DNA of 64,000 bases from Moniliella sp. 'wahieum' (taxonomy: Eukaryota): NCBI GenBank assembly GCA_003971905.1, contig RSEE01000011.1, positions 558,001 to 622,000 on the forward strand, given 5' to 3'. The notes beneath the pieces were generated by a model that saw only the letters and a program-made list of their open reading frames with translations, made no database searches and had not been told where the DNA came from. This document shows positions 26,743-63,487 of the stretch, in pieces (the first letter of the stretch is position 1; each line of letters begins with the position of its first letter). A program made the translations under genes and the position numbers.

Positions 26743-28073
26743 CTATAAAGCTCTGTCTACGTGTTTGGGATGGTCCAAACAGATAATGAATGGCGGGCTA
26801 GGTGAGATCGTGTTGAGACCTAATGGCGTGAAGTGTGGTATTTGAGCCATGTGAGAAGCAGCGCATAGATAATGCCGTATGCTGCGTGAAGCTTCAGTTT
26901 GTGGACAAAAGAGACGCTTGCATTGGCCTGGCTCAACTCCAACATCAACACGGATGTAAGGCCTAAGGCCTGAGGTTAGGCCTGTGGCGGCGCATGCGCA
27001 TTCTGTAGGAAGGAGGGGTTGAAGCATCCGAGTTGCCGATAGTTGTCGGTTACCGGTTACTGGCCTTACCGGTTACTGGCCTTACCGGCTACCGATTACC
27101 TCCGGTGGCCTATGGTAACGGTAACTACTAACTAGTAGCCGGACAGTAGCCGGTAACCAGTAACACTACTAATAAAAGGGTGCAGGGTCGGAGTTAGGTC
27201 TGACACCTGTCTGAACCAGCCGACGGCAGCAGTTGTGACAGCCATGTGCGCTCGCAAGTGCCTCGTCCCGCCCACCTATCAGGTTATTGGGTCTTGAGAA
27301 ATGTTCGACAGAACCTAACCGCCGGGCCGCATTGCTTTTACTGCGCCTCAGGCCTCAATACGCCCGCTGAGACAAAGCGCGTGGGTGCGTATCTCCAGCC
27401 ACGTCAACATGCTGACGTCGCACTCATGGAGGTGCACTATACATGTCGCCCGAAGCACGCTATCTTCAAGCTCCAAGCTTCAAAGCTCAGCCAATCGATC
27501 CGACCTCTTCGTCAAATGGGTCGTGTGTGTGACAATGAGCCCACCTTACACCGGGGGCACACACAGCCGCATGCTAGATCCTGCGAACGATTCAGCCAGT
27601 GGGCTGAGGCGCTGCGGACTGAATATCTGAGCCTCATCGTCGCCCCCGCGGCTCCAACTTGTGCACTTACACAACCAAAGCATCTGCCGCGTGTCTCGAC
27701 GATCGAATCCGTCCCTATTCTATCCCATGGGATTCTCGGAGGGCGGGTTGCTGATACACGCGCGCACGCCCTCTCTCTCAGAGCCCTTTAGTAGGCTGTC
27801 AAGTACAGCATGTCGCCAACGCTTGATGCAAGCCTGATGTTACTGCTCCAAAAATAGCTGGCCCCGTACCCGGTCACCGGTACCCTTAGATTATCATGCG
27901 CGCCGCACGGGCCATCAGCCACTGGTTGACGTGCTGTCGCCCCGGAACGGAATCCATTAAAAACACGCGTAGTTGTGGCACCTTAAGATGCTATAGCCTT
28001 ATCCCCCCTTCTCTCCTTCCCTCCCTCCTCCAACCACCACATCTCCACATATCCGTCGTACCACTTCACCGAT

Positions 28074-29039
28074 ATGACCAACGGAATCACTCGCATTGCT
28101 GTCGCTGGCGTGGGCCACGTGGGCGCGCCCGTGCTGAACGCCTGCTTGCTACGCCCGGTCTGGCCAAGCCTATCGTGCTCACTCGCAACCCCACTGGACC
28201 AACCGTCCAACCGTATGCGGACAAGGTTACGCTCGTCAAGATCCCTTCCTACGACGACGAAGCCGCAGTGGCCGAGGCTCTGAAGAGCCACAACATCGAG
28301 GCTCTGATTGCTGCCACCGGTGGTGCCAACGGTTCCACCCAGCTGCCGATCGCCAAGGCGGCTAAGGCGGCTGGCCTCAAGCTCTTTGTCTCGGCTGAGT
28401 TTGGCCTCGACTTCCGGTACCTCTCCGCAGCTGAGCTCCACCCCTGGCTTGCGGACCGCAAGGCTTTCCACACCACTTTGAACGAGGTACGCTCCTCTCC
28501 TCTCCTTTATTCCCTTCCCTCTCTTTTGAATCTCGTATGCTGACATTCCACTTCAGTTGGGAGTGCCTTGGGTTTCGCAGGCCAATGGCCTGTTTGCCGA
28601 CTGGGCCCTCACCCCCTTCTTCGACATCGACGTCAAGAACCGCAAGGCGACCATCTACGGTGACGGAAACCAACCTTTTGACGCGACCGCTCTAGTGGAC
28701 ATTGGCCGGGCTGCCGTATTGGCTACGCTGGCGCCGCTGCCGCAACCGGGGGCCGGACGCAACTACTGTCGTTGGCATCACTGCCTCGTGGAACCAATGG
28801 ATTGCGCAGCTGGAGAAGCTGACCGGGTCCAAGTTTGACGTTACCTACAAACCTGAAGCGGAGGTCAAGGCGATTGAGCAGCAGCCTGATCCGGCTGGCT
28901 TGCTGCTTTCCTCAAGGCGGCCCAAGCTGACGGTCGTGCCCACACCGCCACGGACAAGGTCGACAACAAGCTGCTCGGGTTCACACCGACCGCCACTTTC
29001 GAAACAGTGAGCCAAGCAGCCGTCGCCGCAGCCAAGTAA
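28074..29039 (+). CDS. NmrA-like / isoflavone reductase-like NAD(P)-binding protein
   Basis: RIAVAGVGHVGAPVL (Rossmann motif), QLPIAKAAKAAGLKLFVSAEFG, ATIYGDGNQP, DIGRA, LEKLTGSKFDVTY. Intron at about 28487-28557. Confidence 0.88.
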
Positions 29040-30031
29040 GGTATTCATTTAACCTTCTGAAACAGTTGGTTCACCAGTACAAATGAAGTACAAGGGTATG
29101 AGCATAACAACCGTTGCCAAGTATAATGGGGGTAGTTGCCGACGTTGCCAAAACAAGGAGAGGCCTTTTTTGGATAGTACAACCACGCGTCACCGGGCAA
29201 ATATACGGTAAAGATCGAAGTAGTATAGGCCACAGTAGGGAGATATTTTCCGACCCGGAGGTTGCACACTATGTAACTCGACAGCGCTGTCTGCGTTCGA
29301 CCTTCATACGGAGTGTGCTATTTTCCGCCCTACAAATACTAGGCGACGATGGTCGAGTTGGGTTCAGCACATTCAACACACTCAACGTTCAACGTTGAGT
29401 TCAGTGTTAAGTTCAACGCCTCAGCACACAGAGCAGGCGCTGAGTTGGTTGAGTTCAACTTTTTCAGCGCTCGGTTCGAAGGCTAAGGCCTGAGGCTGTG
29501 ACCGCGTGAGCGCTGGCCCTAGCCGGCGTCCTGAGCGTAAAGAGACCATACAATTGTGGGAGGCGAGCAAGGCAGGAGCGGAAGTGGTGTGGATGCAATC
29601 AAGGGGAAGGCAGCCCGAAGGCGCAACAGGAAGGGGGCAGAACAGAGGCGGAACAGGGCCGCCTCGCGATGTTGAAGCTCGAAGAAGGCAGCTGTGGTGG
29701 GACAACGGTGTGTGGCGTGCTATTTGTGTGATACCGACGGCGGGGAAACGATCACTGATGCACGTACTGATGCATCGCATCATGCATCATGCATCATGGC
29801 TGAGGCTCAGCGGTTCAGGCGCAGGGCGCCCAGGCCTGACGGTGACCGGCTGACCTTAGGCTGGGTGCCGATGAGGCCGAGGATCGATGGTCAGAATGTC
29901 AGATGCAGATTCAGACAGGCAAGCCCTGGTGGCCTTCAAGCTTCAAGCTTCACTCGGTGTGCGAACATCCTGCCGCCGCTCCCTTGAAACTTGACTTCTA
30001 CACAACCATCCGTCACCATCTCGCCCTCATT

Positions 30032-31922
30032 ATGCCCCCAACAGCGCAAAACAGTTTGTGGTCGACACTGAGCCACGATACCAACAACATCATTGTGCCC
30101 CGCAGCTCCATCAAGAGGATGAGGTCGATGAGGTCGATGAGCTCTCCCGAACCCCAGAGATCTCGCCCGCCTCACGCACGCCCAGAAGGCCTGGGAGGAC
30201 CGAGTATTACAATCCGGTCAGGTCTCCAGATAGTACTTCCGTAAGGTCGCCTACTGAGAATGGCGATCACGGCATCAAAGCTGAGGAGACCGATGGGAAT
30301 ACTGAGGGTACTTCTGGTGGGCGAGAACACGGAGGAGGGCAGTGCTAAACACGCTAAGGCCCACTCAAAACCAAACGCATATCCACAATCGAACACCTTG
30401 CCAAAACTGTTCGTGCCCCAGTGCCTGCCCCCAAATTCCTTTTCCAGTTATGCACCATGGCCGCTATGATTATGGCGGTGTTCTGGATCGACGTCTGTTA
30501 CCTCTTTGGCTCCTTTTACCACGAGCCTTACTTTACTCGACGCGTCCAAGTACCCGTTGTCGACTTTGACGGGGGTGCATTTGGCCAAGCTTTGGTGGCC
30601 ACCGCAGCTAAGCTCAATGCCACCCACGGCTATCCCACCTACACCATTCACCCGGCGAACGAAACGTCCCCACACCAGCTCGCCCATGACGTATGGAAGG
30701 GAAAATACTGGAGCGCAGTATACATCGAATCAGGTGCCACCGAGCGCTGGATGGCAGCGATAAATGGCACGGCCACTGCCTACAATCCCTCTGCCACAGC
30801 TCACACCTTGGTTCTGCCCATTCGCAAGTATGTTTACATGAGCAACTTGCTCATCAGTGGCAACCAGCTGCTCTCAGCTTTCCAGGTGTCCCTCGGTACC
30901 AATGTGGTTGCACCAGCCTTAGCCAACGTCTCATCAAGTGTGCTAAGCACAAGTGCCACCGCTCGCTCAGCGGCCGCGGTTGCTGCTGTCGGAACCCCTC
31001 AATATGCCGACGGCCGCAGTCAACTCCCGTACAATGCACCTTACTCGGAACAGTGGCCGTCGTCTTGAAATTCTGATGAGTTTCTTTCATGATGGGCTTT
31101 AACGCCATGTCCAATGGTTACAACTTGTGGGCGTCCATGCCCAGTACTAGACTCCATGTTGCTCGTTGGCATTTGGGACTCATCTGGCCCTTGCTCACAT
31201 CCCTCTGCGGCACCGGGTTTGTGTTGGTCTTCAAAGGCCCACAGTACGATATTCCCGTCGCTCGCACCCTTTTCTCTCTGGCCCATTATCTGGGTTAACA
31301 ACGCAATCCATTTGGGGTAATGGACGTGATTACTACCTACGTCCCCCTCCCCATTCTTCCCCTCGTCGTGGTCACGTGGACCTTGTCTAACGTGACATCG
31401 ACTTTAGCGGCCCCGAACTCAGTACGTCCCCCCCCCAGATCAGGCGCTACCACATTCAGTATCGTTATCTTGGAGTGTAGTACTACTGACCCATTTCTCT
31501 CGACTTTTTTCTCTTGCCCTCACGCAGCACACCACTTTTACCGCACGATCTACTTCTGGCCCAGCTACCACACTTTCAATCTCGAGATGTGTGTGCTCTC
31601 TGATGGAGGCTTGACGAACACACTCAAGTATAGCATCCCCGTTGCCATGGCATGGGGGCCCTTTCCCTCACAGGCTCTTGGTTCGCCACCGCTCGCAGGG
31701 TCCGTCTCGGCCGACTGGCGTTCGCACAACAAGTCCACGAGGGAAAGGCCACTGGCATTCCTCGTCGAAAAACTCAATCTGCTGGAGCGGAAGCTTGAGA
31801 TCTGGAACCCGTCTCATGCACTCCCTTGGTTTAGGGCTGGGCACTCGAAACTTGAAACTCGAAGCTCGGGAGGACTGGCCAATGATTCAGCGGGCTCACG
31901 AGTTGGCAGTGGGGTACCCTAA
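30032..31922 (+). CDS. SNG1-like / DUF3533 multi-pass membrane protein
   Basis: YLFGSFY, VPVVDFDGG, VWKGKYWSAVYIESGAT, YNPS, VTWTLSNV..HFYR...WPSYH. Start and stop approximate. Confidence 0.75.
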
Positions 31923-32461
31923 TGGCCGGGATATTATAGCCTCTGCCGCTAGTCTAAGCCAGTTTCCTGCATTCTTTCGGTTCCCTTGTCAAAAGGACCC
32001 CCCATCAACTATCCACTTTGGCAATGCTCCCTCAAAGCCACACCACTAAGGACTATTAACATCAAAAGGACTTTTCTCTGTAATGCACCTGATCTTCTCG
32101 GCGAGGCCGGCACAGACATGGCAGGGGAACGATTGGTATTTACCCATAATGGCGCAATCGAGACTTTGCCCAACCTGACATGTCACTTGCCATCGTTGTA
32201 TCTTCAATCGTGGCGACCCCAGGCGGGCAGGGGGCTAATACAGAAAAAGGCTGAGGTAGGGAAGGTCCAGTGGGAGGCGGGGGAGTACGGGCGAAAAACA
32301 GATGAGAGGGGCAGGAGCAAGCGGGAACAAACAGGACCCATAGGTTACGCATGAGACGTGAGGGGGATCTCATCGGCACTTGGTGACCAGGGGAAGGGGA
32401 GGGTTAGTACATGGAATAGAAAAAGAAAAAGAGACGCATAGTCCACAGAGGTTTCGAAAGC

Positions 32462-33184
32462 TTACTTCTTGAAGTCATGGAGAGCGTCGCGCATTTGGTG
32501 CCCATAGGAGGTTTGCAACGTGACGAAGTAGGCCTAGGGAAGGGAGGAAGATCACCAGTTAGTTCGAACGCTCATGACACAGAGAAGGGAGAAAACGCAC
32601 TTCAAGTACCGCAAGTAGGAGGAGGAGACCAGACATGCAGCCCAATTGGGCATAGATGAGAGCGTTGCAAATGTCGTGGCCAACTTCATTGGAGGTATTG
32701 GAGTTGAAATTGTTGACGTGGCCCGAGGCGGTGATGGGCGGGTTGTACCCAAAGTTGCCCATGCACGAGTTGTACGTCTTGGAGTGCTGCACCCCGGCCA
32801 CAATGATAACACGATAGCAGGATGAAGATGACCAGCAGGCCTAACCGGTGGAGAAAGAGGTAGAGACGGTAGACCGAGTACCGCTCCGTCGCGATCCCAA
32901 TCACACCCACCACCTGCCACAAACCCACAACAAGGAGCGAGAGACCAGTGAGATACTTTGTCCATGATAATGATACCCCCATCAAAGCAACAATCTCCTT
33001 GGGGCCAAATGCAAGGGCACACCCGGCGATGCCCATGAGAAAGTTGAGAAGGCAGATGCCGTAGCTGCCACTGTTGATCAGTGGCAAGGCCTAGAGTGGG
33101 TGGGCATATGTTAGACCGGGGCTTGGACAATAAGAGCAAGCACCAACGTACACAGCAGCAAAAGTTGATCCCGTGGCGGCCCAT
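32462..33184 (-). CDS. Uncharacterised small multi-pass membrane protein (about 4 TM)
   Basis: MGRHGINFCCC, intron, then PLINSGSYGICLLNFLMGIAG, VIGIATERYSVYRLY, Cys-containing loop, C-terminal TM. Clear GTACG/CTAAC/TAG introns. Confidence 0.65.
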
Positions 33185-35707: not shown

Positions 35708-36993
35708 GCCCAAGAAGCGGGTAGAGAACGTGGATGGGGAGGTGGCTCAATAGGGTGGCAGAGAGGAAGGTGGGGGGGACGAAGTGCGTGGGCAGAAGGC
35801 AGCCAGCGACTGGTGAGGTGGAGGATGGCCCACCGGCAATCTCCGCCAGTGCCCCGCCTCCTCCGCTGCTTAAGCTGGCCCCTGTTCTGCCTGGGAAGTC
35901 AAGCTTCCAGCTTCTGTCCAGCTTCAGGTGCAGGAGCATGGCCATTAGCTAGCCGGGAACATCACTGGTCCGGTCACTGGCCACCAAGCCACGGCCGAGG
36001 AAGCGCAGAGCACGAGGCCTAGTTTCACCCACAATCTCAGCGAAACGGCCCCCGTGCCCGTTCTCAGCAGATCTGCAGCCAGGCACCCCGGGTGAGCGCG
36101 GTCAGCGGCTCAGCGCCATAGCCTGCATATAGCATAGCCCTCCTGAGTCCTGATCCCATAGCGCTTCGCGGCGGAAGGGCACGCGAGACTGGTGTGGTGC
36201 CGGCCTGGCCCAACGCCGCCCGCGGCAGCACAGCCACCAGGCCCCGAAGCGCCCCCGCGCCCCCATTGATGTGGCTGGGAATGCAGCCCAGGAGCGGTCT
36301 CTCTCCATCACACACACTACTGAGTCCTTTAGAGCTTTGGGCCACGTCTGAGGCCTGACGCGGCTCTGGGCCGCTGCCGCCGCCCGATGGGACGGATGCA
36401 CTGATGCATGGAAGGACTGCCCTTGCAAGATTCACGCATCGGAGACAGTCCACATGCATCATGCATCACATGTCACAGCTGAAAAATGTCGCTGTATAGT
36501 CGAGGAAAGACGAGTAGCACCAAGTACTCAGTTGAGTACGTTGAGTACTCAAGTTGAGTGAGTACTCAGGTAGGTAAAAGATTCGTTGGTAGTGAGTACG
36601 AGTAGACGTAGAGGAGAGTAACTAGTAACATCATGGCTAGAAGGGAGACATGGGAAAAAGTTGAAGCACTACTGGATTATCTAGCAAGAGGGTCGTGGCG
36701 CGTGACGCCTGGTCAATGGTCGCCGGTCACCGGTCACCGGTCATTCGTCCTCGTCCTTGTCATGCGCTTCGCTCGTCGCGCGTCGATGGATCGATCATAC
36801 AATGCAGGATGATGTCGATGATGTGCATGATGGGCATGATGCATGATGCATCGAGAGCCACCCACCGATCACCGCATGATGTACCCGTTCAGGCCAACCC
36901 TATTTGTTTCTTTGTTGCTGGGGCCTACAAGTGATTTGCGTTTGGCGATCGGTGGCCGGTGGTAGGTGGGTGGATTTCTACCCATTTGCGAAG

Positions 36994-37092
36994 AGCTTCA
37001 AGCTTCAAGAGCTTCAAGCTTCCAGCTTCAAGCTTCAAGAGCTTCAAGCTTCCAGCTTCAAGCTTCAAGGTTCAAGCTGAGTAGCTTCAAAC
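36994..37092. repeat. (AAGCTTC)n palindromic-heptamer array with a 30-bp higher-order period
   Basis: Directly visible; the 30-bp period holds from about 36994 to 37069. Confidence 0.95.
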
Positions 37093-37184
37093 TCCTAAGT
37101 TGAATCAATCAATCAGCGCCCGACCTCAGGGGCCTGTGCCTCAGGTATCAGCACGTCACCGGTCACCCTCTCAGACCTTCAGAT

Positions 37185-37244
37185 ATCTCAGACTTACTCG
37201 TGAGGCTCATGCGCATCTCAGACTTACTCGTGAGGTTCATGCGC
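37185..37244. repeat. 30-bp tandem duplication ATCTCAGACTTACTCGTGAGG(C/T)TCATGCGC x2
   Basis: Directly visible; 1 mismatch. Confidence 0.95.
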
Positions 37245-38202
37245 ACTAGCGAAGTTACTAGTTACTATTAGTGACTTATGACTGTCATAGTCACTAGCGT
37301 TGAGCCACCGGCTGGCTCGTGCTCTGGCCAACGTCCCTTCTGTTCCTCCTCGGGCCCTCGGGCCTAGGAGTTCCGTTCTTCTCTCTGCTGTTTTTTCCTT
37401 GTTCCGCAGCTTAGCCCCTGGTGGCGACTCCCTGCTTGATGTTCCTCTGTAGGCGTTTCTGGTTGGCTTAGATCATTACCACCACCAATGGGTTGCAGGT
37501 CTCATCAATTAGTGACTTTCACTGAGGGACAGCTTGGATGATCGATGATCGATGATCGATGGTCTCGACGATCGATGTCGATGAATAAGTATGTCCATTC
37601 CGCCTCCGGTGCCACAAAAAATTGGACCGCGAACTTATCTGTGGTCCCGGTTCCATTATCCGTGTTATGCATGTCATCCGATCGTCAATCTTCACACAGT
37701 CATTCTGCTCCTGTTGCCTTTTTTTGACGTTTCCTCCACCAGCTAGTATAAGTCGCCTCTTGTGGAGCGATTACCATTATCCCTCCAACCCACAAGTTGT
37801 TGGCATAGCCTCTCAGTTTTGCGCCACGATTTTCAGTACTCGACAACGTACTCCACTCCACAACACTCAACGCTTGACCTGTGTTCGGGCTATAACGCGT
37901 AACGCCAGAAGCAGACGTCGGGCCACATGTCACTAGTGATCAACGTTACACGTTGCCTTCCCCACCCCCTCCTCAAATTGTACACTCACGCAAAATTGTA
38001 TACTCACTGGCCATCATACTATACTCGTTCTCCTTCTATTCTGAGAGGGGTATTGGCCTGATGGTAAAGCGGTGCCTGGTATAAAAATGTGGAGTAAATT
38101 GGATTTGTGAACATTTCGTCTGCTTAGCTCAGCCCCGCTGGTCCTTTCTAGCTTCGATTGCTGGACGTGGCGAGCAAGTGGAGCTCCTGGATGGTAACGA
38201 CG

Positions 38203-39033: not shown

Positions 39034-40572
39034 TCCTCCTCATTCGCCTGTCCGGAATGAGACGTTGGTGTAGCGATGGCAACGATGCGTCTCACTCGAC
39101 GATTTAGGGGAGGCAAGCCAAGGCCCATCAATCATTCGCCTATATCCAATGCTTCCTGGTCTCCATGTTTTACCGCATTTGCTTGCTTGTGTTCGTCGAG
39201 GACTTTCCCTCCTGGTAACGAGGGACAAGGTCATTGAACCTTGTTCTGGCCTGCGTTACCCACCTCCCGTTATACTCATCGATCCGCTTCCTGCTAACCA
39301 TCTTACCTCAACGACAACCAGGGATATAGGTTTTCTTCGAGGAAAAGTCCTATATTGCTCACGTTAGCGTTATCCCAAGATTCGGCATCCATAGGAACGG
39401 AAATGCTCTGTATGTGATTTTGTGGGCGAAGTCGGGAAAGGCAAAGTCATAACTTGGTGGGAGAAACAATGCTATACCTGCGCAACCAATGGATCACAAC
39501 TCAGAGCTGCATGAGTAGAGTGGACGTTCACGTTTGACTCTGCTGACGATAACTACGGGTATACATCCAAATACCATAATGGGGTATTATCCGCATACCA
39601 TGCCTCCAAGTCAAAGCCCCCTCTTTCTTCAATGGTCTTATTTGTTTCGCTGGAAAGCCCAAAATGGTTCTCCTCTCGAAGAGAAAGACAGAGATATGAT
39701 AGACAGCTAGGGCCAAGTTTTCAAGGTACATCTAATCTTGTACCCACAGTATCTATATCACAGTACCCAGGTGGGTGTCGTCAGAGAGACTAAAATAGCG
39801 CGGGCAGCATCAGTGTGATCAGTGTTACTATCGAAGCAATCATATACAGGTAACGTTAATTTAACGCAATATCGGACCGCTTCCTGCTGGGGCGTCCATC
39901 GCTCATGGTGCCTGTGCACTCTCCCATACGAGATCCCTCCTTGTGCGGAGGGCTGAGGCGCTGGCTCACCAGTCGGTAATCGTTTTGGCATTCTCATCGT
40001 CTTGCGGCGCGAATGAAAGCAGAGTGCACACTTTACAGCTAGGACGATTAGGACCTTTTGTCCCGCCGCTTGAACAGATGCGCGGTTTGGGATGCTCGGT
40101 ACAATCATTAATCAGTACTCAGTGGGCAACTATATCCGGTGGGCAAAAGAACTTGAAACATAATATTCCCTTTATTACCTCCCTGTGCCCTCTAACAGGT
40201 TTTAGTGCTTTAGTTCGCTTTTTCATTCGGAATTCAGTGCAGGTGTATGGTGCAGGTAAACCTGGAGTCCTAGTGGCCCTCGAGGACGATACAATCGCAC
40301 TGTTGTGGTGGTGGTCTATTGAAGCCAGCCAGGAACGCTTATAGAGGAACATGATGCTCCTGCATCAAGCACAGCCAATCGCTGCCAGGGCCTAGGCTGT
40401 GCGACAGACGCAATAAGACAACGGAACACGACATTATAGTAGGCCTAAAAAGAGAGACTGAAGGGGGGCACCTAATAAGTATAAAGAGAGTCTTCCAGCA
40501 TCGTAGTGCACATCTAGTTTCCATTCCTATCATATCTCACATCAGCCCGCCACGTTCCAAGTGCTTGAATAT

Positions 40573-45144: not shown

Positions 45145-45495
45145 CGTTCCGGTGTCTCTCGATGCGGAGCCACACATGTCATAGGCATCTCTTCCAAACA
45201 CGTCATCAGTCTCTACATGCCTAGCAAGAGAGAGCTACAGTAGTAAGGCATAAAGCGCAGTCACAGTTCTGTCAAGTCCGCGGTCCGGTAGGCCGCAGCA
45301 GACAAAGGGTTCTGCCAAGACTGTGGGCGCAATGGGAACAAATCATCGTACCCATGCGCCCATATTGAGCGGGCTGCGAAGGATGCCAGCTGCATGGATA
45401 GATAAGCTCTCTCTTGCTAGCCTATGTAGAGGCTGACGTGCTAGTAAGAGATGCCTATGACATGCGGGGCTCTGCGTCGGGAGACACCGGAGCGC
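45145..45495. repeat. About 90-bp imperfect inverted repeat around a spacer of about 170 bp (MITE-like or inversion relic)
   Basis: 45149-45237 (CCGGTGTCTCTCGATGCGGAGCC..CATAGGCATCTCTT..CTAGCAAGAGAGAGC) is the reverse complement of about 45405-45490. Confidence 0.85.
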
Positions 45496-45718: not shown

Positions 45719-45873
45719 CCTTCAGACAAGGCGTGAAGGCAAAGTGGTGAGCCACAAGTCTTCAAGCAACGTCTCATTGTGAGGAGCAACAGGTCAAGAA
45801 AGGAAGCAGAGGCGTACCTTCAGACAAGGCGTGAAGGCAAAGTGGTGAGCCACAAGTCTTCAAGCAAACGTCT
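45719..45873. repeat. About 55-bp direct repeat x2 (CTTCAGACAAGGCGTGAAGGCAAAGTGGTGAGCCACAAGTCTTCAAGCAA..CGTCT)
   Basis: Directly visible at about 45719-45775 and about 45818-45873. Confidence 0.95.
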
Positions 45874-46065
45874 GAAGGGAAGGAGAAAGGAGAGAGAGAA
45901 GGGAGATGGAGCGAGCAGGGCGTGCGCGGCCTGCGAGCGGAACGCTTCCGCTCGGCTAGGCGAGCGTCACCGATCCATTGAGGGCCGCGCAGGAGAACCC
46001 TAGCAGTACCTCTAACAACTGAGAGGAGTGTGGAGTTACTAGTTACTAGTTTTCTCTATACTGCA

Positions 46066-46812
46066 TCCCTATCATTGACAGAGCTTTAAAGGCGTCGCGG
46101 TGCTCTCATGTACCGCCTTCCGGTACGCGGTCTGCGCCTGCCGCGTTACGCGTTACATGAGTTGCTTGTTTGCTCAGGCCGACGAGACCAATTTTCTCAC
46201 GCCCATCGTATTTAGATGCTTTGGGATGCACCTTACACTACGCAGCCCCTGTGCTGGCGCCGCACGGGGCCGCATGAGAGCACCAGTACAACCCTGCTGC
46301 CTGCGGCGCCATCGACTGATCGCCTACTGCGATTCTCAGATCTCATGCCAATCGATAATCTCTTCAAGCTTCGCTTCACTAGCTCTTCAAGCTTCAAGCT
46401 TCAAGCTTCAAGCTTCACTAGTCGCTAGTCACTAGCTCCACCAGTACTCTAGTACTCTTCGTACTACGTGAGGCCGGGTGAAAAAATGGGAAATGGGAAA
46501 CGCCCCTGTGCACTTTTACATCAGCGCGTGCCACGTTCAGTCCACCCAGCCAGCGCGTATCTCTAGGGGGAACGGTGGCTAAGGTGGCGGCCAAGCACCG
46601 AGCTGGGGCGAAGAGCTGACCGGGCGCCGCCGTAGGCCCGGTGGTCTCCTCGTTGGTGATGTTATTTGTCTCTCCAGCGTGGAAGGGTTCCAGCGTGGAA
46701 CGGTGGACCGGTGGACCAGTGGAACGGCGGCTACGGTGGCAACGGTTGACCCAGCCCAACAGGCTGGGGCGAAGCCTCAGCAGACCGGGCCGTGGGCCCG
46801 GTGGTCTCCTCG
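46066..46812 (+). mobile_element. Non-autonomous Helitron-like element, copy 1, with two tandem 3' ends
   Basis: 5' A|TCCCTATCATTGACAGAGC. 3' hairpin CCGGGCC-GTG-GGCCCGG followed by TGGTCTC-CTCG|T at 46812; an internal second 3' end at 46652. Termini shared with 62460-62828. Confidence 0.7.
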
Positions 46813-48499
46813 TAACCCATGTGTGGTGCTGAGGCGAGTGGCTGGGCTACACGTGCTATTAGGTCAGAACTTGGCATCGAGCTCTCTGTTTTATTAAAAG
46901 GGGGATGTCTGGCCCATCGCTGGCCAACTGTGGCGAAGCAGCGAATACGCGGCAAACACATCCAAGGAGGCGGAAACAGCGGCGGAACATGGGGCCATCG
47001 CCTCGCACAAAGACCCCTCTGACGGCCATCATCGAGGTTGCATAAGCAGATCCAGGGACCATTCATTGCCTTTTGCTTGAACATTGAAGCTTGAAGACTG
47101 ATGGCACTGACGTCCTTGTGGTCGCCGATAACAGATTTGACCTCACTCGCGTCCTTGACACGAGGATAGCAAGGGAGAGCCGAGATGGCGCTGACATCCT
47201 GGATGTCAGAATAAATAAGGTTTCTGATATCAGCGACATCACGGCCACGATGGATATTGGTGACGTGTACACTATCAAAAGGGGTCGGTAGTGGTGCAGT
47301 TGTTGAACGTTGAATATTGAATGTTGACTTTGGGCGGCAAGTCGGCCAACGCCGAATCATTAATCACCAAAACAATCTCCCCACATGTGCTATGAACATG
47401 CGACTGTCACGCATGCAGCATAGACGCCCCAGTAGGCCAGTCTCTTATGCATCCCCTATCACACATTACGCGTGGCAATGCGATGGTGCCAGAGGCGCCT
47501 GAGGCCTGGGGATTGTCGATTGCTGCGCAAGGGCTGCATAGCCGATGCACTGATGTGCTGTGTGACAGTACCTGACTGACCGGTGACCAAATCGATGATC
47601 GCTGAAGCGCTGAAGCGCTGAAGCTTGAAATGAAGATTGTTTTCCACTATGCGACGACCAGTAGGGTTTTACCTGGTCTGCCATGTGTGCTCTGGGGCGC
47701 CTCATCGATCATCGGCCTGAGGTGGCTCGTGCGGGGGGAGTCACCGGCAGGGCTGCCATGCTGCACCGGCAGACGCCAGCAGGTGGGGCGGAACACAAAA
47801 GCGCATCGATCCCATCCCAGCGTCTACTACGTATCGGCGGGCGGAGGGTCGATGGCAGCGCTGCGCCAGCCGCGCCAGCCTGCGCCAGCCTGCGCCAAAT
47901 GCAGCGCCATCGGCTGCCCCGGGAGGCTCTGGGCCCGTGCTTCCACCCGCGGGGCTGTCCTTGCCACCGCCTGCCGTCCTTCCAGTGCGCCTTGTGATCG
48001 ATATCGGCTAGTCGCGACGAGAGACAGGGGCAGCGCGCCATTGTCGCCATTGCGGGGAAAGGCACGGCGTGGCGTTGGACCCTGGCAAACCTCTATTAGG
48101 CCATTTAGGCATTCGGCAGGCTCCAACGTCGCTTCTGCTCCGAAGGCTAGTGCTGGGACGCGAGAGCAATGCGCAGTGCGCTTGCAGGCTGAGAGTTGGG
48201 GGGGTTAGCCGGTTAGGGCACAGGAGGGCACAGAGCGCAGACATGCGTGCTAGTGGCTGCCCAGCCAGCGCCCCAGGCCTTGGCCAGCACGCTCAGTAAA
48301 ACTAGTGACTAGTGGCTAGGGATTTCACTATAGCGCTAGCGAGATCCCAATCATCCGCTCGACTTCGGTTGGCCCTTCGTGTTTCTCTCGCCACGCTTCC
48401 TCTCCCTCCCCCCGCCCCCTCCCGTCCTCCCCCGCGACCTCCCCCCCCCCCCCCCCCCCCCCCCACCACCACCAGCAGCTGGTGCAGCACTGGGCGAAC

Positions 48500-50352: not shown

Positions 50353-50868
50353 CCTCCTCCTTGGTATCCATCCTACATCCCCCTTCTGAGAATATCGCCT
50401 TTTGTACCCATGGCCGTTGCCCCAAGCTGTAACAATTGCCACGAATGGACTCTTTTGAAATAGGAATGAAGGCAGAGTCTCCAAGTCTCTGATTGTGCTG
50501 GTGATCTTCCTGGTGATCTCAACTGTCGTGTATATCCACTACGACTTCCCGCCGACATCATCGTTCTCTCCATCTTTTTGACTCTGCCGTCGCTCTTGAT
50601 TCGCGCCACTCTTTTTTTCTGTACTGTGCATTTTCCATCAACCTCTGCTCTCTCGTACCGGCCTGAGGCCTAAGGCCTGATATGCGGCCATGTTACAAAT
50701 ATCACACTTCTATTATACTTTGCTTCTTCCTTATGATACGGATGGCAAAAGTTTGACCTGGGAATCATTGTCGGTATTATACCGACTTGCTGTATCGTTG
50801 TTTCTTCATCATTACGAGCGTAATGAGCGAGAGGATTTACATGTGTTCTAATCCCCTCCAGGCCAATT

Positions 50869-54267: not shown

Positions 54268-54485
54268 GACGATGGCAGTGGTAGGCTGGGCTTGCCGTTG
54301 GAGGCCCGGAGGAAGAAAGAAGGGAGCATGGCGTACGTAAGCTACCCGTGGGTTACATTGAAATTATCGTGAGCGGTGCAGGGTTCAACTTGAACGTTCA
54401 ACACATTCAGGACGCTCAGGCTTGCTCAGGTGCTCAGGGCGTAGCGGCGGCAACTCGGCGGCCCACCACCTCCATGCTGGTAAGC

Positions 54486-56274: not shown

Positions 56275-57904
56275 CCCCTCGCATTTAGCTTCTCTTTCCC
56301 AATTGCTTCTCTGTGTCCCGGGGCACACGTCGCAGTGACAAGGATATGTGCTCTTTCTTGCGGAGCACGGAGTGACTCGCTCAGTTGGCCGTGGTTGCCT
56401 GACGCATTGTGGCCCACCTCAATCACTGTCACATGTTTCTCATGTATGTCATACGCTGGCAAACCGGCCTTCCGTTGCGCCCAAGAACTGCAAACTGCAG
56501 AATGTGCTACGCCCTTGTTGAGCATTTTTGAACGTCTGACATTACAGGTGACGTTTGATGGCTGTCACTTGCGTTCTCCGGCATTGTGCTGCACACACTT
56601 CGTCGGTCTACCGACACATTGCGTCCTTCACATTGTAGAAAACTGTCACTATCAACATTGGGATCGGCGTACACCCTCCCACGGGACAGGGCCACTCTAT
56701 CCAGCCTGATGACCACCACCTAAACTGATAGGCATAGCAATCGGGATACACAAACTGTCTGAGCCAGAGAAGGTCACTGAGGTCAATATTCGATAGTAGA
56801 TATGTGTAGGCAATATCGAACTGCATTAACCGTTGGCACTTAGCTTGATCGGTTCACCCCCCGTAATATACGCTTTTTGTTTGTTCTGGAGAGAAGTAAC
56901 TAGTAGACCCCGAAGAGATCTTGAACATTTACCATGATATCATGATAGGTCTCACCCGTTTAGTAGACAGTCCGGCTCGTCACCACGTTTCGTCCTCTTG
57001 ACTATAGGCGTGCGAGCCCGCGGCGTCCAGTATGCACAACTTGTCATATTCTCGCTCTATCTGTTCTGAGAGTGTGGACACCGCCTGCCGGGTTGAACGT
57101 TTTGAACGTTGACCACGCAATGTTTGCGGATTTCCTTCGTTCATGCAGATCCATCGACCCCTCCTTGGTGCGCGGTGCGCGTATACGGAATTGACCACCG
57201 AGAGACTAGTGCACTACGCAGCACGTGTACCCGGTGTCCACCGTCCACCATATCTTTTTGTGGCCACATCATGCCTGTCCGTCCGGTCATTTACCATCAT
57301 GTGGTTTGGCGTCTTCAGCGCGAACAACAGAAATGCATGGATATACGTGCGCGCCGCCAGCATCAACTGCGTCAACGTACTTATTACTTCTCTCACTATC
57401 AATCCCCGTGAGTTTAGCTACGTTGGCTCTCAGATCCCACGGCGCACATTCGCACGAATTCATACCTAGGGCCTATATGGGGGCGGCGTTGCTAACCCGT
57501 ATAGTGACTAGGGCGTGACGCGAGCTAGTGACGCGTGACGGCAAACCTTTTGCTTGACGTTAAAGACTAAACTCACTGAAATCACTTGCACGACGATCCA
57601 AAAATGCCGATCCCCCAGCAGAGGGCCCAGTGTCTGCACTCTTTCCCAGGGGTAAGATGCTCACAAAACACTGCCCCTACGCTATACATGTCTGGGGGGT
57701 GACACAGGCACAAGGGCAGAGGAAATGCTTGTGGGCTGACAGGAACGACACTGCCGGATGCTGCCTATTCCCGCGCGCAAGCAGCTCGCGCTCGCGCTGC
57801 GATCAGACAAGGGGCATACAAGCGGCCGCGGGTCAGAGAGGGACAAAAGTGTTGTCCCTGCCTTCTTCCAACCTCCACACCTCCCACCGTTTACCGATCT
57901 AAAG

Positions 57905-60062
57905 ATGAAGACCCAATCCTCCCGCACACGCAGCCGGACGCTGCTTCGTGCAGCTCTCCTCGCTGGCGCTGTATCGAGCGCCGCGCCCATGCGCCCTTGA
58001 TTGAGCGCCGTCATGTCAACCGTGCCGCGGGTGCACCAGCTGGTATCTCGAGCAACCCCCAGTCCTTTGACGGACAGACGTTCGACTATGTCATGTCGGA
58101 GGCGGCAATGCCGCCTCGTGGTGGCTTCGCTTGAGTGAACAGGCCAACCTTACGGTCGCCGTCATTGAGGCCGGGCCTAGAGGAGAAGGCGAGCCCAGCA
58201 TCACCACGCCAGCTGCGAACGTACGTTCTTTTATTTCGCCATCGCTTGCAACATCCTGGCTACCTAACATCAACTCTGCAGCTTACAACTCCTCCGTTGG
58301 TACCGACATGGACTGGTCCTACAACTACGACAGCTCAAGCCAGTTGATGAACCGTCAGCCCTTGGCCCCGGGGTAAGACCCTGGGTGGGTCCAGTGCGAT
58401 AAATGGGCTGTACCTTGTACGCCAGCCCGAGGTTGAGCAGGACAGTTGGGCGAACCTCATTGCGAATGGTACGGAGACCCAACATTTGGGCTTGGGACAA
58501 CGTGCTTAACGCTATGAAGCGGAGCGAGACCTACACCCCTGTTGACGACGCTGCTGAGAGCATCATTGCCGCTGGTGCTGGCTCGGCGGCATCGTCGAAA
58601 AAAAGTTTGGTCCCTTATACGTCCTCCAACCACGGTACCTCGGGCCCGATCCATCACAGCTACCCCGGCTACTCGTACGAAGATGGGTGCGTTCTCGAGT
58701 CGGCGGCAATCGCGACGGGCCTCGACATCAACCAGGATGCTTACGGTGGCAACAACTCTGGTCCGTTCCTGTCCATTTCGTCGATCAACCCTGGCAACTG
58801 GACCCGTTCATTTGCCCGACAAGGTTACCTCGATCTGTCGTCTACCGAAGCAACTTGCATGTTCTCACAGGGTTACAGGCAACCAAGATCAACTTTGACA
58901 CCAGCAACCCCCCAAAGGCTGTGGGGGTTAGCTTTGCTGCCTCCCCAACCGGTTCCACCTACACAGTCACGGCCAAGAACGAGGTCATCATCTCGGCTGG
59001 AGTTATTGGCTCTCCCCAGTTGCTCCAGTGTCGGGTGTGGGTGACAGCTCAGTGCTGAACCCCTTGGGGATCAAACAAGTGGCTAATGTGCCGGGTGTAG
59101 GATTCAACCTACAGGACCACCTGTCTACATCCGTCAAGTTTTCTCCCGTAGTCAACACTACCATTGCCCCTGCTCAAGTGACGGGCAATGCGACGGTGGA
59201 CAGTTATGTCAACTCAGCTACGGCTTACATCCCCCTCAGCAAGATTCTGGGTAACAATTCTCAACCCTTCATTGATGGTTACAAGCCACATTTCCAACTA
59301 TGTGGGCCTACGATGCCCCCCGATACGGTCAAGGCAGGGTTTAATGCGACAAGCTACGAATTGGCGTACAACATGTACCCCAAAGACGTTCCCGCTGTCG
59401 AGATTCTCCTGGGTAACACCTATGGCAACATCCTCGTTGAGTGTGGTCTTCAGCACCCTGTTTCCCGTGGCAGCGTCAAGATCAACCCACCTCGGCGTTT
59501 GACAAGCCTCAGGTGGACCCGGGCTATTTGCTGCACGAGGAGGATGTGACGATCATGCGTGAAGGGCCGTATGGCCCGCAAGGTTGGTTCCACGCCTCCC
59601 CTGAGCACTTTGCTGGTACCGAGGTGTCGCCCGGCGCCACAGTCCAGTCCTCGGCTGACTGGAACACCTACGTGGCCAACACTCGTCCGGTACCGAGTAC
59701 CACCCTTCGTCCTCTGCTCTATGCTTCCCCTTGAGCTGGGAGGCGTTGTGGATTCCGAGTTTAACGTGTACAACACACTCAGAACCTGCGCGTCATTGAC
59801 TCATCCGTGCCCCCGCTTTCCATGTCCCAACACCTCATGACCATCACGTATGGCTTGGGCGAAATTGGGGCTGACCTCATCAAGGCCAAGGCCAACGGTG
59901 TCAACTACGGTGTCACCACCAACACCTCTTCTTCCGCACCCCATCTCCTCCACCTCTGGAGGGAGTACGGCAGCCAAACCAAAGTCTAGTGACGGGTCGC
60001 ACCTCATGACCTCAGTGATGGGAATGCTCGTTGCTGCGGTGGCTGGTGCAAGCTTGTTCTGA
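57905..60062 (+). CDS. Secreted GMC oxidoreductase (AA3_2, glucose oxidase/dehydrogenase-like) with GPI-type C-terminus
   Basis: Signal-like N-terminus, FDYV..GGG, VAVIEAG, GKTLGGSSAING, EVIISAGVIGSPQLLQ.SGVG, GFNLQDH, EYHP..CSMLP..GGVVD, LRVIDSS, SQHLM (His/His pair), then S/T-rich linker and hydrophobic tail. Confidence 0.93.
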
Positions 60063-60423
60063 TCCCTTCATATCTGCCCTCATGGTAGTTTTTACCCTTT
60101 CAGTCACGCTCAAATACCGCATTCACGATCCCTGCCTATTACGTCTGCTCTCTCTTCACGCCTAGTTGTGGAAACCCGGGCGGCATTTATCGTCGTGGAC
60201 GCCATTTCCCATGGGCGTCTGACCTTTCGCTTGTTCCACTATACACCCTCCTCTTTCATGCCTCTCCCCCTTTTCCGTTGGACACTTTTTTAGTTATTCA
60301 GTTGCTTTTTCTCCCTCAAGTGTTTCTTCAAAGAATTTATCGTCTGCCGGTGTGCTGCCTACTGAGATCAATCAGAGCTCTGAAGTAGCTTTTGCAGAAC
60401 TCAGTTTATAAAAACTGAGCCAA

Positions 60424-60950
60424 TTGACTCTCCGCCATTCTATCCACCCCGTGCCTCTCCGGCTCTCTGACAAGCAGGTTCAGGTCGGTCTCCATCCGCA
60501 CGCTGTGCTGCTCCACGCGCAGCATGTGCAAGTGCGGCGTCTTGTCCTCGCTGGAGCACATCATGGCTTGCGCCCACACCCAGGCCAAGTTTATCGGGTT
60601 GCACGAGGCAGTACGGGAGCCATTGTCGATTATCCAGCTCGTGCGCTCCATCCCCGACACCCACGTCCTCATGGAACCTGCTGTGGAGGAAGAGGATGGG
60701 TCGAGGCACGGGCGGAAGGCGCTGCGCACCAACTACTGCGTGATGGGGCCCGGAGCAATCGGAGTATCAGGAATGGAGGTGGACCACTTGCTGCGCGACA
60801 CGGGATCGTAGGAGGCGCAGAGCGCGTCCCGGAGGGTGGTGCAGGAGAGCACCGCAACGCCTTTGGAACGCCGAGAGAAGGAGCTGCTTCGGCTGCTGGA
60901 ACAACAGAATGCGACAAGAACGCCAAGTAATACCACTGGGATGCACCCAC
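60424..60950 (+). mobile_element. Degenerate 3' fragment of an RLE-type (CRE/R2-like) non-LTR retrotransposon
   Basis: PLRLSDKQV, CCHC knuckle CKCG-x5-EHIMAC, HEAVRE, V-x2-EP, RT(N/D), REKE. This order matches the zinc knuckle plus restriction-like endonuclease region; there is an in-frame stop at about 60809. Confidence 0.5.
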
Positions 60951-62459
60951 AAGAGAATAGCCTTCCTAAGGCCTAAAAGCCAGTCGAGGGTGATCTGACA
61001 GGTGACATCGGGTTACATCGGGTTACATGGTTACATCGGGTTACCGATTAGCGGTTAGCGCTTAGCGGTTATTTTGTTGGAGTATGGTGGCATGTGGCAC
61101 CACTTGGTGTGATGGCTTGAAGCTTGAAGCTTGAAGTATCAGTCTGTCGTCTGAGACCTGGAGTCCTGAGGCCTGGGCCTGAGGCCGGGGCTAAGCTGCG
61201 GAACCCTTGAAAAAACAGGAGAGAGAAAACAACGGAACTCCCACGCCTGAGGAGGAACTGAAGGGACATTAACCAAATCACGAGCCATCTGCACAGTGCA
61301 ATCGTCCATAGTTTTTGTGTTGACATCCGTCCTAGGACACCGCGCGGACACTGAGTCACGTGAGTCAGTTTTCATTCCTTCCAAGCTCGCATCAGTCTTC
61401 TGGACGATTCAGTCACAGAAGCTCCTGCGTCCAATACGACGTTCAATCTCAGCTGAGGGCTCACATCCTATGGCAGTGGCGAGGCCGACAGCTTGGTGGC
61501 GTAGCTACTTCTCAGTTAAACGTGTTAAACGTTAACGCGTAACGGACAACGGCGGTTCTGGCTCTCACTGGTGTGAGATATTTATCGCGCTTAAGCTTAT
61601 CCATTGATCGCCCGTTAGTGCTTCGCTCTAGCCCCCATTCTTTCAGTTATGTGCAATGTGTGCATTATGGTCAAAGCTGCAACAAAATCGTGTTTGCTGC
61701 TTGCCGGCATCTCGGGCATTCGGCTGGCACACCCGTTCCTTTTCAGGCACTCTGAGCCCCTTTTTGTGGGGGTTTCATTCGTAAGGGCTTCAAGCTTCAA
61801 GAAGCTTCAGCGCTTCAGTGCTTCAGCGTCAACTAGCAACTAGAGATCCCGTTCCGACTCAAAAGTGTTAAAAAAGAGAGGAGCTGCTGTCTTGTCACAT
61901 GTCACGTAGAGTTCGCGGACTATAATCATGCATGCGTCATGTATATATCATGCGGCATTGAGTCCCGTAACGCGTAACGCGTAACGCGGAAGGGAACGAT
62001 CCGCGGACAGGAAGATGTGGGAGAAGAAACTGAATCGGACCACCGAGGCGCTCAGTGCCAAGAAAAACAAAGGGTAGATGTCACAGTCGGGGCTAGGGCG
62101 AGGGAGGCCAGCCAGAGTCGGAACTAGAGGTCAAGGGATGTCAGCAATCGTTCGTGGGGAGGAAGCAAGAGCAGAGGACACGGTGCGAAGCTGAAGAACA
62201 GGGACTAGGGAAGGGGCGAGACGCTCGGGACGAAGGAAATAGAAATAGGAGCGAAGTCACTAGTCACTAATAGGCGCTAGTCACTACTCTATATAGTCAC
62301 TAGTCAGCGAGTCAGCGCTAGCCAGCGCAGTCAGCGCTCAGGCAAACGATGACAGTAGATATCACATACATCAGCGTATCACAGAGAAGATCTTCTGATT
62401 TTTATACATCCGTCCATCTGTCGTGTTCCCATCGCAGGGCGCTTCATCTCCCTTTTGAA

Positions 62460-62828
62460 TCCATATCATTGACAGAGCTTAAGGCTGGGACAGGGGGAAC
62501 GATACGTCTAAACCGAACCGTTCATCTTGCGGGGGTTACTTGAAAGCGCCACTAAGGTCCTATAACGCAGACCCCCTTTTTCTTTACGTCATGCTTACCT
62601 ATTTGTTTGCGCGGGCGGAATGCGCACCCCACCCCCGCGTGCTCAGCCATGCACATGGGTGATAAAATTCCTCCAGCGTGGAACAGTGGAACGGTGGCTA
62701 AGGTGGCGACGGGGAACGGTGGCTACGGTGGCGAAGGTGGACCGGTGGCTAAGGTGGCGACGGTGCACCAAGCACCAAGCTGGGGCGAAGCCCCAGCTGA
62801 CCGGGCCGTAGGCCCGGTGGTCTTCTAG
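62460..62828 (+). mobile_element. Non-autonomous Helitron-like element, copy 2 (369 bp)
   Basis: Starts A|TC (TCCATATCATTGACAGAGC) and ends CTAG|T. Subterminal hairpins GCTGGGGC-GAA-GCCCCAGC and ACCGGGCC-GTA-GGCCCGGT lie just upstream of the CTAG. No target-site duplication. Confidence 0.8.
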
Positions 62829-63487
62829 TTAATCATTAATCATTCCGTTCCGAGTAGATTCTGCCGTTGTCATTGCAGGGCACAACATGCTTCAAGTGAA
62901 GCTTCAGCGCCTTCAGCTTCAAGCTTGAAGCTTGATATATCAGGTCATCGATCACCGGCACCCCACATGCTCGTCTCTCCATGGGGATTACCGGCCTTAC
63001 CAGTTACCGGTTATTCTTGTACTATCTATCGTCCCACCAAGTTCTCTCCATCTCATTCAGGACATGATGTATGATGTATGATGATCGATGATCGCTGACA
63101 TAGGACAGGGGACATGTGACGTGCGGGGCACGAAGAGGACGTCCACTTGCAAAAACCTAGAATACCAACCACCATTAATATAGTAGGACCAAATTAAAGC
63201 CGTGCCCTCTATGAAGTCCCCCTAGTCCTAGCCATTCCGTACATGTGACATGTGTGACATGAGCATGCGAGCCCGCGGGGCCCCAACCACACTGGTCTCA
63301 GAAGCATGCAAGCCCCCATAATACTGTGAGGAGATTGTTCTCCTTAGGACCGGCACCGGGGGATCTGCATACTTAAGTAATAAACCTCTTCTTCATTTCC
63401 ATCGCTATCCATCTAAAGTTGTACCCGACATCAGCCGCACCACCTTCGCTCATTGTTACCAATATCGGCACTGGGGTTTTCCTGCAG

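Follow-up and report, generated by a model that had tools for sequence, protein, structure and literature searches.

Excision footprints of hAT transposons such as Ac/Ds and Tam3 consist of two target-duplication copies joined through short deletions and P nucleotides at the former element boundary. The same arrangement describes the repeats reported here, which lie in a 64,000-nucleotide stretch of contig RSEE01000011.1 (assembly GCA_003971905.1, positions 558,001 to 622,000; hereafter the window, numbered from its first base). Its intergenic DNA holds short tandem arrays with a period of seven, the unit being a 6-bp palindrome that begins with A and ends with T, plus one further base (A-xy-y'x'-T+N). 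The Ac/Ds and Tam3 footprints differ in that the duplication is 8 bp there and 7 bp here, that one product dominates here and is stacked into tandem arrays, and that an element is seen nowhere in the window. With moderate confidence, we read the arrays as accumulated excision footprints of a cut-and-paste transposon, or of a transposase-like enzyme, that leaves hairpins on the flanking DNA (hAT, MULE, Transib or RAG chemistry). The anatomy of the products, their T-N-A specificity and their exclusion from coding DNA are directly observed; from these we infer a transposon, hairpin intermediates and a route of repair.

Similar chemistry operates at V(D)J coding joints, where RAG and Artemis act and the hairpin is opened 2 nt off its tip, giving a 4-nt self-complementary overhang and two inverted nucleotides. 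These joints differ from the window repeats in being somatic and vertebrate and in lacking a target duplication or arrays. Passages of PMC5499845 group RAG with hAT, Transib and MULE and describe for all of them hairpins on flanking DNA that Artemis and similar host enzymes open. Passages of PMC5873905 describe Ac/Ds footprints in Candida, yeast and plants as short deletions with palindromic P nucleotides and implicate Pso2; the same portions of the two sources place the opening of hairpin flanks by Pso2/Artemis-type nucleases in fungi (Candida, yeast). Excision scars in rice species are likewise a genome-wide source of small indels, but in the sections of PMC4423477 concerned they are heterogeneous (8 of 94 clean), rare and scattered, and form no periodic arrays.

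Target duplications of 7 bp occur in Basidiomycota. According to parts of PMC12730594, hAT7 of Puccinia and Melampsora has them and clusters with Ac and Tam3, which use flank hairpins; Kyakuja of Laccaria, also in Basidiomycota, has a 7-bp duplication as well. By analogy, a hAT7- or Kyakuja-like cut-and-paste element is a plausible agent within the phylum. The 7-nt repeat unit agrees with the hAT7 duplication in length. These families have been described from Pucciniomycotina and Agaricomycotina, whereas the window is nearest to Ustilaginomycotina and yielded no homologue of them. No hAT domain was detected in 123 open reading frames (ORFs) of the window, a result that covers the window only and does not exclude a family elsewhere in the genome. 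The hAT7 terminal motif, taken from published consensus sequences, matched at chance level in the window (18 matches, 13.6 expected), and AACGGTGG matched five times (2.25 expected), four of these inside a dispersed element of ~110-160 nt that is described below.

Neither period-7 arrays of A..T palindromes nor iterated footprints that form tandem repeats were described in the literature searched. The underlying chemistry has been reported before; what appears to be new is a self-recreating scar that grows into sixteen-flavour period-7 and period-9 arrays in promoters. Tandem repeats are normally attributed to slippage or unequal exchange. If our reading is true, short tandem arrays in all sixteen flavours are built unit by unit from transposon scars, because each scar offers later visits a better target. 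Proto-microsatellites and fast-evolving promoter DNA would then have a concrete origin, and past transposon traffic would have left a fossil record legible even where the transposon itself is missing; the transposase's stagger and target preference and the host's hairpin-opening offset could be deduced from sequence alone. The 'palindromic microsatellites' of Fusarium mitochondria (PMC7218506) were considered as well and are (A)n(T)n structures, unrelated to the present arrays.

Anatomy of the repeats

The same 6-bp palindrome occurs twice with a 1-nt spacer in 19 pairs of the window, all of the A..T class, and in none of the C..G, G..C or T..A classes. With a spacer of 0 nt there are no same-hexamer pairs, and with 2, 3 and 4 nt there are 3, 2 and 2. 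In 200 dinucleotide shuffles, A..T pairs with a 1-nt spacer averaged 0.03 and never exceeded 1. There are 40 exact period-7 repeats that reach 14 bp or more; the unit is A-xy-y'x'-T+N in 26 of these. The remaining 14, mostly C-rich, are non-palindromic, and no palindrome of another class occurs. When the unit was scored as T-N-A, a palindromic tetramer and T-N-A with the same N, 64 occurrences in 55 runs were found, compared with a mean of 2.3 and a maximum of 6 in the shuffles. Ten of the 16 possible hexamers occur in exact period-7 arrays, 14 in same-N modules and all 16 in any T-N-A-flanked module, the last two tallies being read off the module lists. The first-pass annotation, made from the sequence alone, had claimed tandem A..T palindrome arrays in intergenic DNA; these were recovered at, or within ~20 bases of, the positions it listed, as was the excess it implied over other palindrome and spacer classes and over dinucleotide shuffles. 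Its own estimate was about 12 of the 16 hexamers.

The unit is best read as T-N-A, a palindromic tetramer and a second T-N-A with the same N. Within spacers, T-N-A recurs at a lag of seven 107 times, compared with ~36 at neighbouring lags, with echoes at 14 and 21. N is identical across 81 of these 107 pairs, and 67 of them enclose a palindromic tetramer; 15 of the 16 tetramers are used, and tetramers and hexamers alike appear at fairly even frequency. The 43 single palindromic modules (tallied from the list) comprise 32 with an identical N on both sides, 8 with a complementary N and 3 with some other combination. T-N-A is thus copied directly as a rule, and perfect 10-bp palindromes are exceptional. 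In 38 of 50 repeats of TNAxy at lag 7, the middle 2 nt reverse-complement xy, and in 41 of 44 repeats of abTNA they reverse-complement ab (chance rate 1/16). The pattern is specific to T-N-A. In scans that made no assumption about it and required only a 5-nt repeat with a 2-nt inverted filler, T.A was present in 38 of 61 and 41 of 54 cases, and a corresponding 4+3 scan returned A at the second position in 40/42, with T before it in 38/40.

Analysis of the run lengths revealed 2 runs of 10 nt, 6 of 11, 11 of 12, 12 of 13, 2 of 14, 8 of 15, 5 of 16 and 9 longer ones. In all eleven 12-nt runs the extension is one-sided, 2 nt against 0 and never 1+1, and the sequence reads ab-TNA-b'a'-ab-TNA or TNA-cd-d'c'-TNA-cd. 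Extensions of 0 to 6 nt at the run ends number 16, 7, 17, 7, 6, 1 and 1 on the left and 18, 8, 16, 6, 2, 3 and 2 on the right. The ends are thus bimodal at 0 and 2 nt, with extensions of 2 nt outnumbering those of 1 nt by 33 to 15 (p = 0.007). One-sided runs of 12, 19 and 33 nt, equal to 5+7k, are present.

Different A..T hexamers also follow one another in the same frame, with 12 pairs at spacing 7 compared with 0-1 at spacings 4-11; the mean of such pairs at other spacings was 1.3. Five T-N-A-flanked unlike pairs (36459, 40105, 46387, 47304 and 61526), as we interpret them, read ab-TNA-b'a'-ab-TNA-cd-d'c'-TNA-cd, a pattern that implies two events on one original site; in the pair at 46387, the final TNA reads TCG. 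Symmetrising 51 chains gave a weak consensus, C-G/A-T-S-A-C/T-G, for the inferred target. Arrays that share a unit had unrelated flanks when compared by eye.

These features bear on replication slippage or unequal exchange of heptamers, favoured by the hairpin folding of quasi-palindromic units, which we consider improbable. Being self-complementary, the arrays form hairpins closed by a T-N-A triloop: the array at 46385-46417 folds at -7.3 kcal/mol (z = -3.9) and that at 36994-37078 at -17.7 kcal/mol (z = -4.0). Slippage probably alters the copy number of the longer arrays. As their origin it is already disfavoured. Three of the five folded arrays do not surpass shuffled sequence in stability (z = -0.02 to -0.9), a stable hairpin would not call for T-N-A rather than G-N-C or for 0 pairs in the other palindrome classes against 19, and 46 of the 55 runs are 10-16 nt long, too short for efficient slippage. 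Slippage copies units, and it has no route to in-phase unlike palindromes, to a 2-nt inverted filler or to ends at 0 and 2 nt; the single copied unit of unconstrained sequence that typifies slippage micro- and minisatellites is not what the window holds.

A second class recurs at a lag of nine. Here two copies of a 7-mer ab-TNA-cd are separated by 2 nt, the reverse complement of either cd or ab. Nine full cases were found (0.04 expected), with one more partial at 30129, and this class accounts for the TRF period-9 arrays at 36531, 36808, 61515 and 63244. Period-8 units (AGCGCT + 2 nt) fit a 3-nt inverted tract. Plain 7-nt duplications are rare (ATGATGT at 63064, AATGTT at 47318). The first-pass annotation needs correction in part: AGTACT at 36523 and 36541 proved to be 10-bp palindromes with a period-9 repeat rather than period-7 arrays, and ACGCGT at 37893 and ACATGT at 61894 are single modules. 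The AGCGCT repeats at 61804 and 47600 have a period of 8. At 62262-62301, the 7-mer AGTCACT occurs three more times around 10-nt and 9-nt fillers (AATAGGCGCT, ACTCTATAT); these copies are possibly imprecise scars that keep both copies of a duplication.

Modules are excluded from coding DNA. None of the 55 runs lies inside the Pfam-supported ORFs (15,648 bases), 31 sit in the 18.6% of the window without an open frame of at least 300 nt, and the array clusters are located in 5' and divergent intergenic regions. Runs occur at ~1 per 250 bp of spacer, or 0.86 per kb over the window. A location in intergenic, partly divergent-promoter DNA, and palindromes of the type expected for dimer sites, would suit selected cis-regulatory DNA, that is, arrays of dimeric transcription-factor binding sites or structural promoter elements. 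We regard this as very improbable, given that no single factor fits 16 hexamers and 15 of 16 tetramers at fairly even frequency and that a filler set by the neighbouring dinucleotide is a mutational rule rather than a binding rule. Sites for bZIP proteins or heat-shock factor were also tried, and their half-sites do not fit. Several judgements of the first-pass annotation are supported here: it had seen no tandem arrays within conserved coding sequences, and the full set of hexamers, the in-phase mixtures and the copied N agree with its view that neither plain slippage nor one transcription-factor motif is at work. Its suggestion of a largely sequence-independent enzymatic writing at nnTNAnn agrees with the inverted-filler rule and the fixed T and A, and its view that the arrays belong to no named repeat class stands, though the kind of process proposed here, excision chemistry, is a known one.

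Comparable arrays in metagenome contigs

Metagenome contigs were scanned for (AAGCTT+N)3, which yielded at least 121 loci. Among the matches listed, most were bacterial-looking arrays without the palindrome rule, as judged by eye from context and composition, and a few were intron-rich, fungal-looking contigs with in-phase second palindromes. In contig L075, AAGCTT+C x3 is followed in phase by ATCGAT+T x3; in L016, AACGTT+A precedes AAGCTT+G x3; and in L081, AAGCTT+G x3 precedes AATATT. Fungal-type Pfam matches (protein kinase, NACHT, M35 peptidase) were obtained for L075, L043 and L016. Outside the seeded arrays, module density on contigs longer than 2 kb was at most 0.5 per kb, against the value of the window given above. 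The array design is not unique to the host, and the density in the window is unusual.

Contigs L043 and L066 come from two samples and represent one fungal-looking locus; over 5.3 kb they are 99.2% identical, and they carry an identical array. Small indels (4, 2+1, 10 and 1 nt) occur in the five gapped alignment blocks, all of which are outside the array region, and no module differs. An assembly or sequencing artefact is scarcely credible as an explanation of the window arrays, given that similar arrays occur in independent metagenome assemblies, including this locus in two samples, and that the pattern is confined to non-coding DNA and takes many sequence flavours under consistent rules.

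Bacterial heptamer repeats (STRR-like; AAGCTNN) likewise have a period of seven and are intergenic, and (AAGCTT+N)n is common in bacterial-looking contigs. They differ in that neighbouring units vary without regard to a palindrome (GTGGCTT and GCGGCTT in L067) and no other A..T palindromes accompany them; these arrays are a different phenomenon. In eight low-GC, bacterial-looking contigs (L001, L040, L049, L059, L079, L112, L113 and L118), the DNA after the (AAGCTT+C) array is similar in every case and reads GACA..., ~15 nt, TAGGAT..., AAAGGA... and ATG. This stretch looks like the conserved promoter and leader of one gene family.

A footprint model and its alternatives

In the proposed mechanism, an element would insert at an intergenic ab-T-N-A-cd site with a 7-bp stagger and thereby duplicate the 7-mer (consensus nnTNAnn). 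Excision would seal both flanks as hairpins, and a host nuclease of the Artemis/Pso2 kind would open these 2 nt from the tip, leaving flanks with 4-nt self-complementary 3' overhangs, cd-d'c' on the left and b'a'-ab on the right. End joining with one overhang kept and the other lost would yield ab-TNA-cd-d'c'-TNA-cd or ab-TNA-b'a'-ab-TNA-cd, a net gain of 7 bp. The hexamer A-xy-y'x'-T would then be palindromic by construction, because its A and T come from the two T-N-A copies. If 2 extra bases were kept and nothing were lost on the other side, the period-9 class would result. The scar, a palindromic 7-mer, would itself be a target whose two overhangs are identical and cohesive, so that each further visit would add exactly one identical unit and the arrays would grow; slippage may contribute to this growth.

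Under this model, the period and the 5+7k lengths, the fixed T-N-A and the constant N per cluster, the free inner bases and the in-phase mixtures are all explained. The absence of modules from coding DNA would follow from the frame shift that a 7-nt insertion causes. Two features that characterize excision footprints were found: a target of fixed length is duplicated around the joint (the nine lag-9 cases and the 38 + 41 5-nt repeats at lag 7), and P nucleotides occur at the joint, as seen in the 38/50 and 41/44 inverted fillers and in run ends at 0 or 2 nt. In a further scan of the window, nnTNAnn 7-mers recurring within 600 nt formed 161 pairs, with no common filler ends.

Several observations weigh against this reading. 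Among the 123 window ORFs of at least 120 codons, none matches a transposase family, and a window scan for 7-bp direct repeats around terminal inverted repeats returned one candidate, which proved artefactual and lay between two arrays. In the typical 8-bp hAT target, T and A stand near the ends of the duplication, not around its centre, and nnTNAnn is therefore no simple mirror of it. Modules within one array are not independent, which makes the p values too small, and the figure of 6.6% of bases covered by perfect modules, like the lag-7 counts of T-N-A within spacers, comes from six intergenic segments that were chosen after the gene map and the array positions were known. The two blocks of contigs L075 and L016 meet at a change of N, for which the model needs an extra point mutation. 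Published footprints are also far less regular: in the parts of PMC4423477 concerned, two intact duplication copies remained after only 8 of 94 excisions in rice, and passages of PMC5873905 report 28 footprint types in 128 Candida revertants. The dominance of one clean product needs either very regular repair or the inferred self-regenerating cohesive-end step, and the uniformity is partly a detection bias, as messy scars are invisible to the scans used.

The lack of an element in 64 kb, and the uniformity of the products relative to published footprints, would both be explained by break and repair without a transposon, which gives the same product anatomy and which we rate as unlikely, though a serious contender. 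A host nuclease, perhaps a domesticated transposase, would make staggered or hairpin breaks at nnTNAnn in open chromatin, or a polymerase would switch templates, with snap-back synthesis during end joining writing insertions of 5-7 nt direct plus 2 nt inverted. This explanation needs a 7-nt stagger to be filled in and 2 inverted nt to be added in a single event, and we know of no described enzyme that joins the two. Insertion, which makes the duplication, followed by excision, which makes the hairpin and P nucleotides, yields both features by known chemistry; moreover, nothing in the window points to such a nuclease.

A bolder reading is that the writer is a hairpin-forming transposase kept and domesticated by the host, or else an element that has reached a lasting equilibrium with it, and that this writer frequents nucleosome-free promoter DNA. 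We consider this reading rather unlikely. If it is true, stacked footprints would be a main source of new intergenic sequence and tandem repeats in the lineage, and would represent a repeat-generating mechanism separate from slippage.

Other duplication schemes were also compared with the repeats. PIF/Harbinger elements have a T-N-A core that often lies inside a longer palindromic site; they differ in having a 3-bp duplication against the 7-nt unit here. The centre of the palindrome in the window lies 2 nt outside TNA, and a 3-bp duplication with flank hairpins therefore cannot produce it. A Harbinger-like 3-bp TNA duplication with P nucleotides, which would place the centre at the TNA edge, was rejected. 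The 3-bp duplication and the TAA/TTA motif of PIF/Harbinger are those of Table 1 of PMC4423477. Same-N TNATNA in the window matched 47 times, mostly in coding-like DNA and with no concentration in spacers. A Transib-like 5-bp duplication with 2 P nucleotides fits the lag-7 class; it is asymmetric about N and fails for the 7-nt repeats of the lag-9 class. Leftover element-end dinucleotides of the Tc1/mariner type would require 15-16 families. Inverted duplication or fold-back predicts a complementary N, which is seen in 8 of the 43 single modules, against the same N in 32. Finally, a miniature inverted-repeat transposable element or foldback element was dismissed, as no structure of terminal inverted repeats with a target duplication was found in the window and the flanks of same-unit arrays are unrelated by eye.

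Positions of the arrays and neighbouring features

Array features are listed here without assignment of strand. The gene-dense left 27 kb of the window has a sole exact array, TAAGGCC x2 (AGGCCT+A), at 4958..4971. AGGCCT modules recur in a TAA-GGCC-TAA-GGCC-TGA chain at 26957..26975, which is followed at 27047..27180 by a decayed cluster with a GTTAC frame (ACCGGT+T) on the left and a GTAAC frame on the right, forming a large imperfect inverted arrangement. Modules of AACGTT (TCA-ACGT-TCA-ACGT-TGA) lie at 29382..29398, and (ATGCAT+C) x3 forms a 22-nt run at 29777..29803. The array CT-TCA-(AGCT-TCA)x2 at 29934..29952 is a one-sided 19-nt run (5+7k), as predicted by the model.

The inferred original site CA-TCA-CA at 36453..36482 carries ATGCAT on its left and ACATGT on its right, in phase and with N=C throughout. 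The period-9 repeat GT-TGA-GT + AC + GT-TGA-GT at 36531..36568 is accompanied by two TGAGTACTCA 10-bp palindromes. (ACCGGT+C) x3 at 36718..36743 forms a 21-nt run, and at 36808..36851 the period-9 repeat GA-TGA-TG + TC + GA-TGA-TG is followed by (ATGCAT+G) x2.5. The longest array, of (AAGCTT+C) units, extends over 36994..37078 and shows two lag-9 joints (CT-TCA-AG + AG + CT-TCA-AG) and a 30-nt super-period. It is succeeded by (ACTAGT+T) x2 at 37253..37267; between these two palindrome arrays, a 30-nt unit is present twice at 37185-37245, with 96% identity. Further along are (ATCGAT+G) x3.5 with decayed units at 37537..37584, a single module TAA-CGCG-TAA-CGC together with the palindrome TCA-CTAG-TGA at 37893..37939, and AA-TCA-TT-AA-TCA-GT-AC-TCA-GT at 40103..40123, which reads as ATTAAT and AGTACT modules on one site, AA-TCA-GT.

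A third group begins with (ACTAGT+T) x2.6 at 46034..46051 and (ACGCGT+T) x2 at 46142..46156. At 46362..46435, (AAGCTT+C) x4.7 makes up a 33-nt run, equal to 5+7x4, and is continued in phase by ACTAGT+C; the inferred site is CT-TCA-CT. A TGA chain of AACATT, AAGCTT and AAGACT occupies 47075..47101. The sequence GT-TGA-AC-GT-TGA-AT-AT-TGA-AT-GT-TGA at 47301..47327 is read as AACGTT and AATATT on GT-TGA-AT, followed by the plain duplication AATGTT. Period-8 CGCTGAAG x3 (AGCGCT + 2 nt), with an AAGCTT module at its end, lies at 47600..47628, (ACTAGT+G) x2.7 at 48301..48319, and TGA-GGCC-TAA-GGCC-TGA at 50660..50680, 3' of a KRE6-like gene.

The right end of the window contains the remaining arrays. 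Period-10 GGTTACATCG x4.6 at 61001..61071 leads into a TTA chain of ACCGAT, AGCGGT, AGCGCT and AGCGGT, and (AAGCTT+G) x3 is found at 61115..61141. At 61515..61544, the period-9 repeat GT-TAA-AC + GT + GT-TAA-AC is followed by AACGTT and ACGCGT on the site GT-TAA-CG; the in-phase pair inside it, from 61524, reads GT-TAA-AC-GT-TAA-CG-CG-TAA-CG. (AAGCTT+C) x2 and then period-8 GCTTCAGC x3 (AGCGCT+TC) extend over 61787..61828, and (ACGCGT+A) x3.3 over 61966..61988. The TCA-frame cluster at 62255..62340 combines ACTAGT+C and AGCGCT and is the one in which AGTCACT recurs around 10- and 9-nt fillers. (ATTAAT+C) x2.3 at 62829..62844 is followed at 62890..62942 by AAGCTT modules in which N switches between C and G, with the perfect 12-bp palindrome TTCAAGCTTGAA; the same interval includes the lag-9 repeat CT-TCA-GC+GC+CT-TCA-GC and an ATATAT module. 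ATGATGT x2.9, plain and non-palindromic, precedes (ATCGAT+G) x2.7 at 63064..63098. ACATGT+G x2 at 63241..63261 has an alternative reading as period-9 TG-TGA-CA + TG + TG-TGA-CA.

The window is DNA of a fungal eukaryote. Its ORFs carry ATG9, tetraspanin, P-type ATPase, MoaA/MoaC and amino-acid transporter domains, as well as BAR, striatin, KRE6/SKN1 and GMC-oxidoreductase domains, which are split across frames as by introns. The ATG9 piece is 65% identical to that of Tilletiaria anomala, the closest named match, followed by other basidiomycetes, and 81% identical to one unnamed assembled protein; judged by such protein matches, the host is a basidiomycete nearest Ustilaginomycotina. No Rfam family reached the gathering score in the 64-kb window.

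A dispersed element of ~110-160 nt is present in three copies (46560-46650, 46673-46815 and 62675-62825), one of which adjoins the ATTAAT+C array. It is composed of short-period arrays (GTGGAACG / GGTGGCTAA-type), two GC-rich hairpins (CTGGGGCGAAGCCCCAG, CCGGGCCGTAGGCCCGG) and a conserved end, GGTGGTCTCCTCG, with no terminal inverted repeats and no Rfam match. An inverted repeat with ~90-nt arms, 84% identical and 170 nt apart (45148-45236 / 45405-45491), lies in a long spacer upstream of the KRE6-like gene, with no target duplication seen. An exact 51-nt direct repeat occurs at 45719-45769 and 45817-45867, its copies 98 nt apart. Coding-like DNA holds a 9/18-nt GAG-rich in-frame unit x12 at 23945-24052 and a 15-nt in-frame unit x13.9 at 25758-25965. 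A C-rich tract at 48404-48464 ends in ~25 C, ~40 nt upstream of the KRE6/SKN1-like ATG.

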